Source of the DNA: a phage
Length of the DNA: 64,000 nt
Strand: one strand, 5' to 3'
Sequence record: PZ445487.1
Shown here: piece after piece, positions 34,995 through 40,846 of the stretch
How the letters are laid out: each line of letters starts with the position of its first letter
Position numbering within the stretch: the stretch's first letter is position 1
Program-made: the position numbers and the translations under genes
Notes under the pieces: generated by a model
Databases searched by the model: none
Seen by the model: only the letters and a program-made list of their open reading frames with translations
Told to the model about the DNA's origin: nothing

Positions 34995-35513
34995 TCAAAT
35001 ACTAGTCATATAGAGTGGGACAACCTGCTCAGCGATCAACACGACCTCGGTAATGGTAAAATCACCACCATAAGAGTACAGTTTCATTTGCGCCCCGTTG
35101 GTCGCCAGGTTCCCATCCTTGTCAACGCTGAAGAATGTAATGAAAGACAAAGTGTCCGGCGGCGGTACGCTAGCATCACGACTTCTTGATAACTGGTTCC
35201 CCACAGAACCCACAAAATCTAATATCATGGTTCTATTAGAAGTAGACCCAGACCATGATCCGACAATATTAACCTTCACAGGAAGAATAGAATCATAGGG
35301 AAACGCATGAAATTTGTGATCTGATAATTTAAAGAACGGAGCCAAACCAGTAGGAGAAGAAGGGTTCGGAGTCTTCCCATCCAACACAGTTAACAAATCT
35401 ATTCCAGTTGCCCCAGAAGTTAGAAGTTGTGACAAACCGGAAAATCTGACTTCTGTTTTGATGCGATGGGTCTGAAGCATATTCCCCAAATAGGGAGATA
35501 TCAAAATGGCCAT
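34995..35513 (-). CDS. hypothetical protein (172 aa)
   Basis: ORF track. Confidence 0.5.
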   Translation of the reverse strand: MAILISPYLGNMLQTHRIKTEVRFSGLSQLLTSGATGIDLLTVLDGKTPNPSSPTGLAPFFKLSDHKFHAFPYDSILPVKVNIVGSWSGSTSNRTMILDFVGSVGNQLSRSRDASVPPPDTLSFITFFSVDKDGNLATNGAQMKLYSYGGDFTITEVVLIAEQVVPLYMTSI

Positions 35514-35522
35514 ACTCCCTCC

Positions 35523-35756
35523 TTAAGAAACGATAACCGTCGCATCAGAATTAATTGCCTTAACCCATCCCACCGTCGGCGGGGTTAAAACGACCATATT
35601 TCCTTGATATATGACATGCGCGTTGTTACCCGTTGGAGTGCTGGGGCTATCACACAGATACACAGAACCGTGAGTCACTTGAAGAGTTTTCAAAGATGTG
35701 CCGTCTGAGACTTGCGTCCATGTACTTGCGTTTGGTGTGATCTTAGCAGTTGCCAT
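35523..35756 (-). CDS. hypothetical protein (77 aa)
   Basis: ORF track. Confidence 0.4.
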   Translation of the reverse strand: MATAKITPNASTWTQVSDGTSLKTLQVTHGSVYLCDSPSTPTGNNAHVIYQGNMVVLTPPTVGWVKAINSDATVIVS

Positions 35757-35884
35757 AATAGACCTCCTTTACAAGTCAGATCTATTTATTACAGACAAAA
35801 AGAAACCCGATCATCCTGATCGGGCTATGTTAAACCATCGTGGGGATGGAAAGACTACTCACAGCAATTTCTGATAATGGGCGT

Positions 35885-35913
35885 TGGGAGAGTGCGTCGG
35901 GAATCGAACCCGA
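35885..35913 (-). other. orphan tRNA 3'-module (T-arm tcggg/cccga, 7-nt acceptor strand, no cloverleaf completed)
   Basis: Sense reads ...TCGGG-TTCGATT-CCCGA-CGCACTC-T-CCCA; nearest complementary 5' acceptor strand (GAGTGTG) is about 150 nt upstream at 36034..36040. Confidence 0.3.
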
Positions 35914-36047
35914 AACCGTCAGGACAATGAAAAGCTATTGCATTTCACCTTGCATATCCTCCGGCTTTCTTAACTTCCTTAACCCCAGATTGTTATGAAG
36001 TCGGCATGCACACCTTCTTCATCTTCAGGAAGTCACACTCATTGTTC

Positions 36048-36136
36048 TGGTTGCTTCAACTGGATTCGAACCAGTGACCTCAGGCACCTTGTTCTCTCGA
36101 AACTTTCCTGCGCTCTACCACTCGAGCTATGAAGCA
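36048..36136 (-). tRNA. tRNA-like gene with non-canonical anticodon domain (possible pseudo-tRNA or insertion)
   Basis: Perfect 7-bp acceptor stem (TGCTTCA/TGAAGCA), D-arm GCTC-GAGTGGTA-GAGC, T-arm ACTGG-TTCGAAT-CCAGT and encoded CCA; the anticodon region is a 4-bp stem CAGG/CCTG enclosing 22 nt, and no 5-7-5 anticodon hairpin is found. Confidence 0.4.
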
Positions 36137-36139
36137 ATT

Positions 36140-36228
36140 TGGCGGAAGGTGAAGGATTCGAACCTTCGGGGGCTAAAAGCCCCACTCGATTAGCAGTCGA
36201 GTCCCTTAAACCTCTCGGGCAACCTTCC
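36140..36228 (-). tRNA. tRNA-Ser (anticodon GCU), class II, encoded CCA
   Basis: Hand-folded: acceptor GGAAGGT/ACCTTCC, anticodon arm CTCGA-CTGCTAA-TCGAG, long variable arm TGGGGC-TTTTA-GCCCCC, T-arm GAAGG-TTCGAAT-CCTTC, discriminator G, CCA. Confidence 0.85.
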
Positions 36229-36232
36229 AATT

Positions 36233-36316
36233 TGGAGCGGGAGAACAGGATTCGAACCTGTCCAGTGATCGTCGCCGATGATCAGTCGGCTACTGGCCAA
36301 CCCCTATGGCTCCCGC
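36233..36316 (-). tRNA. tRNA-Ile-like (anticodon GAU), atypical (12-nt variable region, one-nt bulge before acceptor 3' strand)
   Basis: Acceptor GCGGGAG/CTCCCGC (7 bp), anticodon arm GCCGA-CTGATCA-TCGGC (perfect), T-arm ACAGG-TTCGAAT-CCTGT, CCA encoded; D-stem has one A.A mismatch. Confidence 0.45.
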
Positions 36317-36319
36317 GAA

Positions 36320-36930
36320 ATTAGGACGGGCTTCACACCCGATTGTGCATTTGATCTGCCGTAGCCCAACTCCCCGCGCTTATCAGCGCCGATTGGTTAA
36401 CTGGCACCAGTGCCTTCTGGTTCGATCTCCTGGAACTTTACAGGCTTCGCGCCCGACCATTTCTGGAAGTTGGGGCATCGTTTTCGATGTGGAGTCACCC
36501 CATTTTATACACAGCTGGCTGCAACGCTTACTGTGTTTGGTCTACCACCACGTGCTGGGCCACGCTTGAGGACATCGGCCATCCTTCCTCAGCTAATCCA
36601 CGCAGTGATAGATTTGTATCAGAGTGTCCGGTGTAGCTTTCCGTGAGGTGCGCACTACTGTAGCCTCTACACTCTGAATTTGGTGGGCGTTACTTTCGTC
36701 GGGTTCAGATTCCGTTCGGCTATTGGACGTCGCTCGAGAGAACTTGTCGTTCGCGTACTTCGTGCTTACTTGCTTTCGTTTCACACCCATTGTTTGTCGT
36801 CGGGCGGGGGATTCAAACCCCAATCTTTAGTTTGCGTTTCTTCAAAGCTATCATATGTTCACTTTGAATACTAGACTCCCCTGGACATCAAAACAGGATC
36901 TCTATTCCATCCTGCAAGACCCGACATAAT
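36320..36930 (-). other. GC-rich ORF-poor spacer between tRNA genes with a T-arm-like motif (ggggattcaaacccc at 36806..36820)
   Basis: No convincing ORF; only a low-complexity 76-aa frame; candidate stable RNA. Confidence 0.3.
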
Positions 36931-36932
36931 CC

Positions 36933-37008
36933 TGGCGACGACGGCAGGACTTGAACCTGCGACATACGATTTAACAGACCGCCGTTCTACCGACTGAACT
37001 ACATCGTC
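36933..37008 (-). tRNA. tRNA-Asn (anticodon GUU), encoded CCA
   Basis: Hand-folded: acceptor GACGATG/CGTCGTC, D-arm GTTC-AGTCGGTA-GAAC, anticodon arm GCGGT-CTGTTAA-ATCGT, T-arm GCAGG-TTCAAGT-CCTGC, discriminator G, CCA. Confidence 0.8.
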
Positions 37009-37182
37009 TCTATTCTTACTTTCGTAAACATTCTTTATTCTGCATGAAGACCCAGGGCAGGATCATAACGATCGTAAGTTTTTGGATGAGACCCGTTCTT
37101 GATGCTCACCATCCGACCTTCCCAACTAGCGCGAATTCTGTTGGAAATTACCACCCAAATATTCTTCATAATATAGAACCCT

Positions 37183-37383
37183 TCAACTATGTTTATTCGC
37201 TTCGATCGCCCCTAATTGGGCGTCCGCGTCAGCTTTGGTGTCATGTGTCCCAAGAACTTTAGTCTTGGTGTGGTCAAGGACAACCCACTTATCGCCTCGC
37301 TTTTCAACAAACTCAACAATCTCTTTGTTGTCAGTAGCGAGACCATCCCACTCAGTAAGAAACTCACCGAACGTTTTCATCAT
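37183..37383 (-). CDS. small hypothetical protein (about 66 aa) inside the tRNA island
   Basis: ATG 37383/37380 after GGTGAG; CTAAATA-like motif (plus-strand tatttag at 37412..37418) upstream. Confidence 0.3.
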   Translation of the reverse strand: MMKTFGEFLTEWDGLATDNKEIVEFVEKRGDKWVVLDHTKTKVLGTHDTKADADAQLGAIEANKHS

Positions 37384-37420
37384 ACTCACCAATTGTTTAT
37401 TGAACAACTGGTTTATTTAG

Positions 37421-37495
37421 TGGTGACCCTGGCTGGACTTGAACCAGCGACCAATCCCTTATGAGGGGGCTGCTCTACCACTGAGCTACAGGACC
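37421..37495 (-). tRNA. tRNA-Met or tRNA-Ile2 (anticodon CAU), encoded CCA
   Basis: Hand-folded: acceptor GGTCCTG/CAGGGTC (two G.U), D-arm GCTC-AGTGGTA-GAGC, anticodon loop CTCATAA (one C.A mismatch in stem), T-arm GCTGG-TTCAAGT-CCAGC. Confidence 0.7.
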
Positions 37496-37941
37496 TTTTG
37501 TTTCTTCAAATTATCTAACACATGTGGATTGGATTTCAACATCTTCTTCATGTTGGCCTCCTTACTCAGCAATTGTAAATTCCACAATACGCAATTATAC
37601 TTATTTTCATCAACATGATCTATTTCAAACCCTTCTGGGACTAGACCATTAAATGCAACCCAGACAAACCAGTGTAGATATTTCCTGAAATATTTGCCCT
37701 TATATTCTACTTTGATTTGCAAATAACCAGTTCCATTGTCTACGCCCACCAAATATCTTTCAGGTAGTTTTTGTTCATATTCTCCAAACTGATTTTTACG
37801 GCGTATAGTCAGTTCTGGCTTTTTAATTTTTCCATAGTTGCTGACAAATACATGAATGCCAATTTTGTCTAAATACAACTCTTTCCAAATCTCTTCCATA
37901 ACAACTACCCACAGCAATATGAATTTGTTGTGTCCAATCAA
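37486..37941 (-). mobile_element. HNH homing endonuclease gene (free-standing, abutting tRNA-Met)
   Basis: EIDHVDENKYNCVLWNLQLLSKEANMKK is a classic HNH motif; AT-rich relative to surroundings; 3' end overlaps the 5' end of tRNA-Met; start ambiguous (ATG 37899 or alternative start 37941). Confidence 0.55.
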
Positions 37942-38132
37942 GGACTGTCAACCTTTTATCCCGTTTGTGCATGATCAGTTCATGCAGGCCTCTTTGTGCG
38001 CCTCACGGCAACGCGCTTCTGTAGGTCATTGACTTGCACCGTAGTCTCACCACAGGCGTTTATTTTTCCAGGGCTTTCCACTTACAAGTCTTAACCAGAT
38101 CGGGATACGGGCTTGTAAGATCAGATTGGACA

Positions 38133-38210
38133 CAACTTTGATGGCTCTAGGACTAAAGATCCCGCGTCACCCATAGACTTGGTTTATAAAATCTAGAGCC
38201 ATCAAAGTTG
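38133..38210. repeat. perfect 18-bp inverted repeat (caactttgatggctctag / ctagagccatcaaagttg) enclosing 42 nt
   Basis: Seen directly; arms at 38133..38150 and 38193..38210. Confidence 0.7.
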
Positions 38211-38585
38211 CAACCAATGTCGCAACTCGCACTTCAGCGTCTTCGTCTCGCTTCAGCACTTGTCCTCTACGCTCGGACCAAACGAGGCTGGCCGACAGAA
38301 ACATGACACCACTCATCACTAGAGCGAGGATGTGGTTGATAGCCACGATGCTATATCTCTGTCGCAGAGTGATCACACTTGTCAGGATGATCACTGTTTT
38401 GCGAACTTGAAAATACTGCGCCTGTCTCGGGTTTCCCCTTAGTTCGGCCTCTCATTGTTCGTCTAGTCAGGGAGCTACCCTTGATGACCAGCTTATTTTG
38501 AGATCTTCGCCAGCACCCACTAGTGTCTAGAATATGTAGGTGTCGAGGTCTGCAAGGCATTGCCCTATTTCATACAACGCTCTCT

Positions 38586-38730
38586 CAAGTACGCAAATCG
38601 AAGTTCTCTGGGCTTAACAGGTTCGACCCAACATGTTGTATATCGCCTAACTTACTCATGGGACGGCCACTTCTGTGTACAGACCTTGAGGGTTAAAAGA
38701 TATACCCAAAGAACTTCGATTTGCGTTGTG
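38586..38730. repeat. long-range inverted repeat (17-bp core acgcaaatcgaagttct / agaacttcgatttgcgt) enclosing about 100 nt, followed by hairpin gtgggggc-aaa-cccccac
   Basis: Core arms at 38591..38607 and 38710..38726; hairpin at 38728..38745. Confidence 0.6.
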
Positions 38731-38884
38731 GGGGCAAACCCCCACACGGCTACTTCTTTGACAGGGATTGCTAGCCCTGGGGATTCCACTGTTTAAGGCT
38801 TTATCCCATAACGCCCGAGGCGCGTTTTAACTTATTGAAGCTTGCATAACTGCAAACTGATGCGCTGTGAGACACATCTTTGAG

Positions 38885-38992
38885 GGCACTCAGTGTACGA
38901 CAGGCTCCGATATTTCATAGGGCATTACTGCCTCGGATTTAAGTTGCCTTTCTCCTGAAACTCCATACAGTCTCGCGTCTGACGCGGAATGC
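38885..38992. repeat. long-range inverted repeat (atctttgagggca / tgccctcaaagat) enclosing about 82 nt
   Basis: Arms at 38885..38897 and 38980..38992. Confidence 0.55.
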
Positions 38993-39003
38993 CCTCAAAG
39001 ATA

Positions 39004-39031
39004 TGGAGCCGTTTTAGGGAGTCGAACCCAA
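39004..39031 (-). other. orphan tRNA 3'-module with encoded CCA (T-arm TTGGG-TTCGACT-CCCTA, acceptor AAACGGC)
   Basis: No canonical D/anticodon arms within 120 nt upstream; a possible 5' partner GCCGTTA lies at 39121..39127. Confidence 0.3.
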
Positions 39032-39130
39032 ATGCTTGGCCAGCGCTGACCTTACATCCCATCTGACTTAGGCAACCCACCTCTGCTTACTCAGGAGCTT
39101 ATCCCCTTTGGACAGTCAGATATAACGGCT

Positions 39131-39158
39131 TTGGGATTGGAGGAAGGACTCGAACCTT
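39131..39158 (-). other. orphan tRNA 3'-module with encoded CCA (T-arm GAAGG-TTCGAGT-CCTTC, acceptor CTCCAAT)
   Basis: Upstream 41 nt is too short for D plus anticodon arms and no 5-7-5 hairpin is found. Confidence 0.3.
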
Positions 39159-39231
39159 CTCATGTACGCTCCTGATTTCTCAGAAGTAGTCTGCTCCCAT
39201 CGACCTATTAAGTACACGCTCCGCTCATTGT

Positions 39232-39262
39232 CGGCGGGAGATTATTAATCACACCCTCCCGC
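39232..39262. repeat. hairpin ggcgggag-(15 nt)-ctcccgcc
   Basis: 8-bp GC-rich stem seen directly. Confidence 0.5.
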
Positions 39263-39545
39263 CTATTTTAGTGCGCCGAATTTTGTTATGAGGAATCGGA
39301 AGACCTCACTGGTGTATGGCTATTAAGCTACTGCCAGGAACGTGTTATCATTAGCGATTATTTTTGTGGTCAGTTTCTAAAAACCCGCAAAGTCACGCAC
39401 AACGAAAACGAAAACCTGTTTGAGTCCTAAACCTACCTGTCTTGGTCTCACATCGCTATGAGTGGCCAGGACTCAAACAGCTTGCCGTTCAGTGAGTTAA
39501 CTATACTTTGTAACCCGTTATTGATAAAACCTTTTATTTTTGTTG

Positions 39546-39569
39546 ACGAGGGTGTGGAATCGAACCACA
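39546..39569 (-). other. orphan tRNA 3'-module without CCA (T-arm TGTGG-TTCGATT-CCACA)
   Basis: Possible 5' acceptor partner about 100 nt upstream (39644..39650). Confidence 0.25.
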
Positions 39570-40273
39570 CTTCTGAGCGCCACCCCGTGTCACCAATGCA
39601 CCACCTCACCATCGATTTGCCGGAACTTACGCATCCGGCCTCGTCCTGTCGGTGTTCTTCTGAATCCGGGAAGATCAGCAGGAACTATGAATCAAGTTAA
39701 TTCAACCAACAGGAATCCTCTTGTTGCCCTTTGACGCAACATTATGAACCCTCTATGAAGACTCATAATGTTGTCGGCGTGATGGAGATTAGCGCCCCCG
39801 ACCTCCCCTTATATGTTGGTGTCGACTTGCCAACGGGGTGCTCTCGTTTTTCTGAGCTAATCACGCTACAACAGGGAGTTTCGTTCTCCGACGGTCAAGT
39901 GCGTCCACTGACACCAGCGAGGTGGCTATTACGCCTCTATTCACACAAGCCCCTGAGACTAGGGGTTAACTGGTTTTGGGCTGCAAACCCGACTCCCACT
40001 GTGTTATTTCCCTCATGTTTAATACTTTACCGCAGCCCAGCTAATTTGAAAAGTCCTCTCCCCTTTGAGCTACACTGCCCACAGCAGTGCGGACGAACCT
40101 TCACTCAAAACCGGATGCGCCGAAGTGGGCAACTGTTTACCGGACTGATCAGGTAGACCCAGGAGAGAGCAGGTAATCCCGATCAGGAGGATGAGGAGTA
40201 ACATCATGTAAAACATAGTGTTCCCTCCCTTCCATGCAACTAACTTTACTACAATTATTTATTGAATAAAGCG

Positions 40274-40846
40274 TTATTTTACCACTTTTAACTTCACATC
40301 GCGCTCAATCAGATACACATATTCACGGGCGGCGGCCTGTGACATATAATGAGTGGAAGGAGTGCTGTGTTTGTTCAGTGTCTCTTTTAATTCAACGCGC
40401 TCAGCCCACCCATTGATGGAGGTGCCGTAGAAACCGATCACGGCGGCAAAATAAATGTGTTGAGAGCCTGGCTCGACAATATAATTTATCGTGAAGCAAG
40501 TGTCAGAACGGATTGCCTCCAATTTGATTCCAACGCGGGTGATCGGTAAATCATTAGCAACACATAAATGACGAAAGCGGTCACGGCGAGATTGTGTTGA
40601 CTGCATTAATTCACCCATTAGTGTCGCAGTGGCATCGATATTAAAAGAGAATGTCGAAGATGTTTTGAAGTCAGACTTTGCAAGTTCTACCCCAGAAGAA
40701 AGTACACGACGGTAATTGACATCTTTATTTGTCAGACGCTTTATTTCGGTGCGAATTTTCTCAAATGGCACTTCAGACATTACTTTCCCTTCATATTTTT
40801 CTAACAAAGGGATGATATGTTTTAATACAGCAGTGTTGATATGCAT
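40274..40846 (-). CDS. hypothetical protein (190 aa)
   Basis: ORF track; divergent from the late structural module. Confidence 0.5.
   Translation of the reverse strand: MHINTAVLKHIIPLLEKYEGKVMSEVPFEKIRTEIKRLTNKDVNYRRVLSSGVELAKSDFKTSSTFSFNIDATATLMGELMQSTQSRRDRFRHLCVANDLPITRVGIKLEAIRSDTCFTINYIVEPGSQHIYFAAVIGFYGTSINGWAERVELKETLNKHSTPSTHYMSQAAAREYVYLIERDVKLKVVK

Follow-up and report, generated by a model that had tools for sequence, protein, structure and literature searches.

Within a transfer RNA (tRNA) operon on the minus strand of the DNA considered here, Escherichia phage CBA120 (Kuttervirus, Ackermannviridae) carries a 2.2-kb protein-free stretch which is probably an RNA island: a string of at least five separately inherited structured-RNA cassettes that would be co-transcribed and processed, and not one RNA. 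The DNA in question (PZ445487.1; 64,000 nucleotides, hereafter the window, whose numbering is used throughout) matches the reverse complement of NC_016570 with 100% identity. A segment of it, 38133-39002, had been singled out in a sequence-only reading as about 0.9 kb poor in open reading frames (ORFs), lying between an HNH gene and orphan tRNA 3'-modules. The absence of a convincing ORF and the position are both borne out, with the HNH gene at 37486-37899 (minus strand) on one flank and, on the other, tRNA-like 3' modules from 39003 upward, which correspond to the tRNA-like RNAs listed further below; but the ORF-free region to which the segment belongs is far larger, spanning 2.17 kb (37900-40070) from the HNH gene on one side to orf219 on the other. 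All the neighboring genes and the tRNAs called by ARAGORN or Rfam are on the minus strand. A counterpart of this gap, likewise ORF-free and 1.25-2.2 kb long, bounded by tRNA-Met (tRNA-Lys in Erwinia phage Bue1) and the homolog of orf218, is present in all Ackermannviridae genera examined.

The segment is marked by three inverted repeats: I1, with 18 bp of perfect complementarity between 38133-38150 and 38193-38210 around a 42-nt loop; I3, with 17 perfect bp between 38591-38607 and 38710-38726 (22 nt at 95% when extended); and I2, with 13 perfect bp between 38876-38888 and 38990-39002 (29 nt at 79% when extended). Perfect repeats of 12 bp or more with loops of up to 150 nt are expected by chance at a mean of only 0.005, as estimated from 200 dinucleotide shuffles of 38100-39030. 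Thus, all three long repeats of the sequence-only reading exist beyond chance, but the third sits about 10 nt away from the 38885/38980 originally given for it, and they are neither nested nor long-range: they are arranged serially, with arms enclosing 42-102 nt. The truly long-range helices are two others that had been missed: one pairs 37927-37939 with 38124-38136 across 184 nt, the other 38583-38596 with 38399-38412 across about 170 nt. A GC-rich hairpin listed at 38728-38745 is present as described (GTGGGGGCAAACCCCCAC). When the 870-nt segment is folded and compared with shuffled versions, it gives z scores of -10.1 (minus strand) and -5.2 (plus strand).

Evidence for selection on the paired state comes from minus-sense alignments of Kuttervirus, Agtrevirus-like, Taipeivirus, Limestonevirus and Miltonvirus sequences together with relatives from IMG/VR:

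Alignment A2, I1 hairpin and M1 domain: 66 pairs, 97.4% of cells paired, 23 pairs with compensatory changes versus 1-5 in slid controls.
Alignment A3, I3 hairpin and B-core: 72 pairs, 99.7% of cells paired, 18 pairs with compensatory changes versus 1-4 in slid controls.

No shuffle of either alignment reached the observed covariation score. Read in the minus sense, G-U cells outnumber A-C cells by 91 to 13 in A2 and by 92 to 0 in A3, an excess that identifies the minus strand as the transcribed one. In the distal I1 stem the pairing is conserved and the sequence is not. The proposal of a structured RNA is thus upheld by the compensatory substitutions and the strand-specific G-U excess, and these patterns show the repeats as predicted RNA helices under RNA-level selection on the strand of the tRNAs.

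The same asymmetry bears on the possibility that the repeats act as DNA, i.e. as cruciforms at an origin or packaging site, as targets of homing endonucleases or recombination, or as the ends of miniature transposons. An HNH homing endonuclease gene adjoins the segment, and the cassette mosaic described below shows frequent recombination. However, DNA cruciforms are expected to be strand-symmetric, whereas G-U is tolerated in the minus sense and the equivalent A-C is almost absent; moreover, the HNH gene is an insertion found in some genomes only. We accordingly rate a DNA-level role as highly improbable. A degenerate mobile element with terminal inverted repeats, as once suggested for this segment, likewise finds no footing: the arms enclose only the short spans given above, neither target-site duplications nor other flanking direct repeats accompany them, and no further copy of the repeats occurs in the window. 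In 285 records of related genomes the region was found at 294 places, essentially a single syntenic place per genome, and the arm sequences change with RNA-type pairing kept.

The cassettes are given below in transcript order, which is that of descending coordinates; their limits are inferred from helices and indel breakpoints.

38873-39005, minus strand: I2 module, recognized by its repeat; closing stem of about 19 bp with arms 38873-38901 and 38977-39005.
38727-38872, minus strand: variable multi-hairpin cassette, recognized by presence/absence and predicted hairpins; includes the GC-rich hairpin 38728-38745.
38591-38726, minus strand: I3 long hairpin, recognized by repeat and covariation; stem of 15-22 bp, partly structured 92-nt loop.
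38399-38596, minus strand: B-core, recognized by covariation; multi-helix domain of about 200 nt with a 13-pair closing helix, 38583-38596/38399-38412.
38219-38360, minus strand: block A', recognized by an alignment of hairpins; 3 of 18 pairs compensatory.
38332-38346, minus strand: A' hairpin with an invariant CUAUCAA loop.
38310-38326, minus strand: A' variable hairpin.
38264-38287, minus strand: A' CCUC...GAGG hairpin, nearly invariant and kept as far as Erwinia phage Bue1.
38207-38226, minus strand: A' small hairpin.
38125-38218, minus strand: I1 long hairpin, recognized by repeat and covariation; stem of 17-18 bp, 42-nt loop.
37927-38136, minus strand: M1 domain, recognized by covariation and a match to the covariance model R1; closed 210-nt RNA, mostly outside the segment.

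The I2 module begins directly at the CCA end (39003) of the preceding tRNA-like RNA, termed C, and three inner hairpins are enclosed by its closing stem, making a four-way junction that resembles a cloverleaf. The consensus fold of I2 from six sequences shows little variation, with changes mostly compatible with G-U and a single swap of G-C to C-G; a 20-mer from it matches only five contigs, all of Ackermannviridae. The variable cassette that follows is missing from, or replaced in, many Kuttervirus genomes, e.g. by a short unrelated hairpin in locus L012 and by a longer unrelated segment in L022 and L026. In I3, all cells of the 15 pairs of helix 1 are paired (100%), and three of these pairs show compensatory changes (UA>GC, UA>CG and GC>AU); its 3' arm abuts the closing helix of the B-core. 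A motif scan of IMG/VR with a 17-mer from the B-core yields genuine matches only in Ackermannviridae; four extra matches were set aside as chance occurrences inside protein-coding, apparently terminase-like, sequence. In I1, 9 of the 17 pairs of helix 1 have compensatory changes, the loop contains a conserved UAUGGGUGAC, and the 3' arm abuts helix P1 of M1 (37927-37939 with 38124-38136), which is followed in transcript order by the inserted HNH ORF and then by tRNA-Met.

In two places, therefore, a long hairpin precedes a closed domain of about 200 nt: I3 with the B-core and I1 with M1. At both junctions (38125-38136 and 38591-38596), as read from the sequence, 6-12 nt could pair in alternative ways, either extending the hairpin to 26 or 22 bp, respectively, or closing the domain. 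This junction pairing of I1 and I3 may be coincidental, or may act as a switch in folding or processing.

The modularity of the region is apparent from a map of identity in 50-nt bins across 29 loci of six genera, complemented by pairwise BLAST comparisons. Cassettes have been gained or lost independently among these loci. In LIMEstone1 everything between about 38300 and 39460 is missing, and the loop of I1 is deleted with its stem retained; Miltonvirus phiMAM1 retains M1 and has a tRNA-like T-arm plus CCA in place of I1; L024 and L025 are without I3 and the B-core and retain the variable cassette; many Kuttervirus genomes lack 38750-39000; I2 is present in a subset of genomes only; and L012 has I2 followed by a different short hairpin. 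In the Taipeivirus phages cp19 and P01, a full-length match to the Rfam family STnc100 (RF02076, 53.6 bits) is inserted in block A' of the equivalent island, on the same strand (L004:2755-2969, minus; L029:3031-3245, plus). The STnc100/PasD RNA is described as a base-pairing small RNA encoded by prophages (bioRxiv 10.64898/2026.05.13.724894). It is absent from CBA120 and, unlike the B-core or M1, is not a closed multi-helix domain; its insertion implies that the RNA island also acquires prophage-type small RNAs. Among the supported helices none bridges two cassettes, and this, together with the independent gain and loss, argues against one giant RNA and for a string of autonomous units.

Accordingly, the view that the whole ORF-free stretch is a single giant ornate RNA, comparable to GOLLD or ROOL and with the repeats as its internal helices, appears very unlikely. 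It draws on the location in a phage tRNA array, shared with these complex structured RNAs of phage and prophage tRNA arrays, for which no function is known (PMC12990946), on the very strong overall folding and on the lack of an internal terminator: across the gap the only minus-strand terminator-like site is one weak call (38327-38309), which lies in the variable A' hairpin and has a poor T tail, and a strong terminator follows the tRNA cluster at 35826-35804. Nevertheless, close relatives have gained, lost or swapped single sub-blocks independently, with the neighboring ones intact, every supported helix is local to its cassette, and M1 stands alone between two tRNAs in other phages. GOLLD and ROOL are single RNAs of several hundred nucleotides and have Rfam models (RF01998 and RF03087), neither of which matches here; the CBA120 region, in contrast, is a mosaic of independent 100-330-nt units and not a single architecture.

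In Bue1, which belongs to a distant genus of Ackermannviridae, we observed a separate ORF-free gap of 2.1 kb (L034:1270-3404, plus strand) that ends at tRNA-Lys. It shares with CBA120 only the CCUC...GAGG hairpin block and a tmRNA-like tag (ANDNEFKVAA; tmRNA, transfer-messenger RNA), and contains further structures with long stems and T-arms; the M1-family RNA was not found in it.

Searches with the 4227 models of Rfam 15 were run at the gathering threshold on the window, at E-values of up to 10 on 35500-40500, and also on 28 related or family-bearing loci. At the gathering threshold only tRNAs were recovered, all of them outside the segment; at the relaxed cutoff there were chance-level microRNA and snoRNA matches on the I1 hairpin and weak tmRNA matches outside the segment; and nothing on the 28 loci names the segment. 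No Rfam family thus accounts for any part of 38133-39002. The notion of a large, intron-like RNA fares no better, since the segment splits into independently present cassettes and has no match to group I or group II intron models, though the same search found a group I intron at an unrelated locus. There is also no split gene or split tRNA flanking 38133-39002. The many intron-containing tRNA calls made by ARAGORN at relaxed thresholds are mutually inconsistent, lie outside the segment and were not trusted.

Protein-coding capacity was considered at greater length, as several GenBank records and phrog_23307 annotate small proteins in this region. ORFs of 45-78 codons occur on both strands of the segment, the largest of which (38167-38394, minus strand) matches phrog_23307 with E = 4e-44, and the records of phages SeKF_64 and May annotate many small coding sequences in the gap. 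However, this largest ORF is not kept open in relatives: it has three in-frame stops in L020 and frameshifts in L024, L025, L003, L005 and L007, i.e. it is broken in six lineages despite conserved DNA. Pfam searches with the ORFs of the segment returned no matches, indels that are not multiples of three occur throughout the alignments, and the gap is left empty in the annotation of CBA120 itself. The statement that the segment has no convincing ORF stands, and we give almost no credence to its encoding small proteins. Rather, phrog_23307 appears to have been built from ORF calls on a non-coding RNA region.

Another reading regards the gap as a graveyard of decayed tRNA genes and spacers, in which the repeats would be leftovers or neutral hairpins that are merely transcribed. 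Degenerate-looking tRNA-like pieces are indeed abundant in the gap, and the number of tRNAs at the locus differs among relatives. Against this, blocks of the gap are conserved between genera as much as or more than the neighboring protein gene: module C is 94-96% identical at the nucleotide level and it, like the M1 core, exceeds the adjacent coding gene (about 60-78%). Further, compensatory changes keep the helices with almost no broken pairs, and within 38133-39002 there is no T-loop, no tRNA score and no canonical tRNA by ARAGORN or RF00005. Hence, we consider decay of this kind unlikely.

The M1 domain connects the island to a wider RNA family. Its hallmark is a hairpin loop, GCCCGWAUCCCnnUnUGGUYAAGAC, combined with a covarying long-range helix of 4-5 bp and the topology of the closing helix. 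The hallmark loop is identical in CBA120 M1 and in Klebsiella phage KP13-26 (Stephanstirmvirinae), where a full M1 homolog (L033:1347-1563) with a compensatory P1 fills a 217-nt gap between tRNA-Asn and tRNA-Thr. A pattern scan recovered the hallmark motif from 63 IMG/VR contigs of 13-358 kb, mostly non-Ackermannviridae, and from 2 of 185,579 species-representative genomes, both instances being on contigs of metagenome-assembled genomes. In an alignment of 16 diverse members, 22 of the 29 predicted pairs are compensatory, and the covariance model R1 recovers all the other motif-bearing loci searched plus one Casjensviridae phage. In the window, R1 has a single match (38053-38131, E = 2e-10), which is inside M1; neither the model nor the hallmark motif matches in 38137-39002. 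Thus, CBA120 M1 is a predicted divergent member of this family, with the Ackermannviridae versions differing from the others in their 3' hairpin and junction sequences. About half of the 38 distinct non-Ackermannviridae instances tested have a same-strand tRNA close by; several members begin about 20 nt past the 3' end of a tRNA and are followed by another tRNA, and others have their own terminator or are located upstream of unrelated genes. Rfam searches of 22 M1-family loci with E-values of up to 1 gave no match, and the family was not found in the literature searched.

Two alternative assignments of the M1 family were entertained and set aside. A cis-regulatory riboswitch was rejected in view of the heterogeneity of the downstream genes in other phages, which by eye have the look of a thymidylate synthase, nuclease, ligase or TnpB-type transposase. 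The long-range helix of the family might recall a miniature version of the P4 helix of RNase P, with GGAAAGCCCUGG and CAAACGGGAU resembling CR-I and CR-V, but no RNase P model scores and the pairing is partial, making this a lead only.

By operon context, and without homology, the closest analogues of the cassettes are the species 1 and 2 RNAs of phage T4 (rnaC and rnaD), which are likewise small structured non-tRNA RNAs encoded in a tRNA operon on the strand of the tRNAs. Both operons also host a homing endonuclease gene, segB in T4 and the HNH gene in CBA120. Whereas T4 encodes a pair of them, 119 and 139 nt long, about ten modules are spread over 2.2 kb in CBA120, and those inside 38133-39002 are without tRNA-like CCA ends. 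There is no sequence similarity between rnaC or rnaD and the gap (best blastn E = 0.89), and a kinship of rnaD with the M1 family, entertained because of UGAG and GCUACC shared by eye, was dropped as R1 has no match at the T4 locus. The T4 RNAs are cut from a tRNA precursor, and species 1 is an RNase III substrate in vitro; to our knowledge, their function has gone unexplained for about 50 years. We class the cassettes as new RNA families within a theme already known, that of phage tRNA operons harboring RNAs other than tRNAs.

We think that the cassettes would be excised as stable RNAs from the precursor of the tRNAs, and that the long stems would serve in processing and insulation. The gap would be read through as one precursor together with the tRNAs, in keeping with the single weak terminator-like site on its minus strand and with the position of M1-family members between tRNAs in other phages, and the closed domains, B-core and M1, would be released from it as stable small RNAs. 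RNase P and the 3'-end tRNA-processing enzymes could free those modules that are flanked by a tRNA or a tRNA-like CCA end. Where no tRNA flanks a module, RNase III-type cleavage may occur in or beside the stems of I1, I3 and I2, which are 17-22 bp long and located at module boundaries; the proposal is based on this length and the near-perfect pairing, though length alone is not diagnostic of RNase III. The same stems might also insulate and stabilize, preventing misfolding between neighboring modules. This scheme fits the pairing-only conservation of distal I1, the survival of the I1 stem in LIMEstone1 and the tRNA-like end that replaces I1 in Miltonvirus. As an analogy only, the CBA120 stems may be likened to the RNase III stems of rRNA operons and the early sites of phage T7: they are near-perfect, extend over about two helical turns and would flank or enclose the mature RNAs in a polycistronic precursor, and it is the pairing that is conserved rather than the sequence; they differ in being 17-22 bp long and in the conserved sequence carried by the I1 and I3 loops.

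Several points weigh against this interpretation. About five or six clades, all of one phage family, contribute the covariation, which keeps the number of independent events low, and the structures were predicted from the same alignments that were later used for counting. Informative variation is nearly lacking in the I2 module and the variable cassette, the junction alternatives leave the fold ambiguous at the base of I1 and I3, and stems of 17-19 bp are at the short end for RNase III.

As to function, the company kept by the cassettes in the gap, i.e. tRNAs, tRNA-like minihelices with CCA ends and a tmRNA-like gene, suggests that the mature RNAs may act on the translation and tRNA machinery of the host or on tRNA-targeting defenses, or may serve as decoys for them. 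A bolder and rather doubtful extension is that the undescribed RNA families, the M1 RNA, the minihelices and the tmRNA-like gene together constitute a dedicated RNA toolkit of lytic phages, excised from the precursor and acting in trans. Its components would be decoys for tRNA-targeting defenses or hijackers of translation, ribosome rescue or RNA processing, and the hairpin-plus-closed-domain unit, with its mutually exclusive junction pairing, would be a built-in switch for processing or folding.

The usual explanation given for phage tRNA clusters is codon usage or escape from tRNA-cleaving defenses. The non-tRNA RNAs embedded in them, such as T4 species 1 and 2 and, more recently, GOLLD and ROOL, remain unexplained. 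In Kuttervirus and its relatives, which include well-studied therapeutic and biocontrol phages, more than 2 kb of the genome is given to conserved, covarying RNAs in a stretch that databases leave empty or fill with small ORFs that are spurious; phrog_23307 appears to have arisen already from one of these. As the cassettes are short and modular and the phages of E. coli, Salmonella and Klebsiella that carry them can be cultured, direct tests of cassette expression, processing and knock-out phenotypes are feasible; the cassettes of CBA120 thus offer an experimental handle on the role of RNA cargo in phage tRNA arrays. Our searches of the literature on non-coding RNA in Ackermannviridae or CBA120 found nothing specific.

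The gap, which is unannotated in the CBA120 record and filled with small hypothetical ORFs in other records, contains further tRNA-like RNAs beyond the segment:

39003-39133, minus strand: tRNA-like RNA C, with T-arm and acceptor stem; highly conserved between genera, as noted above.
39137-39207, minus strand: tRNA-like RNA.
39543-39609, minus strand: tRNA-like RNA, annotated as tRNA-Ala in one GenBank record.
About 39785-39880, minus strand: tRNA-like RNA.

These RNAs are tRNA-sized or larger and combine a good T-arm and acceptor stem with aberrant or missing D and anticodon arms; two of them have an encoded CCA. The same part of the gap harbors a tmRNA-like element (about 39241-39420), whose coding region (39323-39355, minus strand) has an A-rich resume region before it and specifies an ssrA-type tag of ten codons, ANDNTFLAVA, with a double stop after it. 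The ssrA tag of E. coli is ANDENYALAA. We recovered 13 distinct versions of the tag, with synonymous codon changes that keep the peptide, from Ackermannviridae, HK620, a Felixounavirus tRNA cluster, a Schitoviridae phage and one IMG/VR contig (further coordinates: L030:1574-1606, L031:1556-1588, L032:1553-1585 and L075:350-382). In HK620 the element is in the late leader, between pR'/qut and the late terminator tQ. About 390 records with 60-80% identity seem to share the element, apparently mostly from outside Ackermannviridae. Standard tools miss it, with ARAGORN calling it only at a relaxed threshold and Rfam scoring it below threshold. In a census from 2014, mycobacteriophages and Bacillus phage G were the only phages listed with ssrA (PMC4131195).

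With respect to the flanks, Pfam and PHROGs searches with the conserved neighboring proteins orf218, orf219, orf223 and orf224 gave no functional clue, and the T4 late-promoter motif TATAAATA was uninformative at the CBA120 locus. The tRNAs of the window are those for Ser, Ile, Asn and Met, plus one at 36051-36136 (minus strand, 48.7 bits) with a 22-nt insertion in the anticodon loop, which ARAGORN calls only when introns are allowed. Between tRNA-Ile and tRNA-Asn there is another ORF-poor gap, 616 nt in length (36317-36932).

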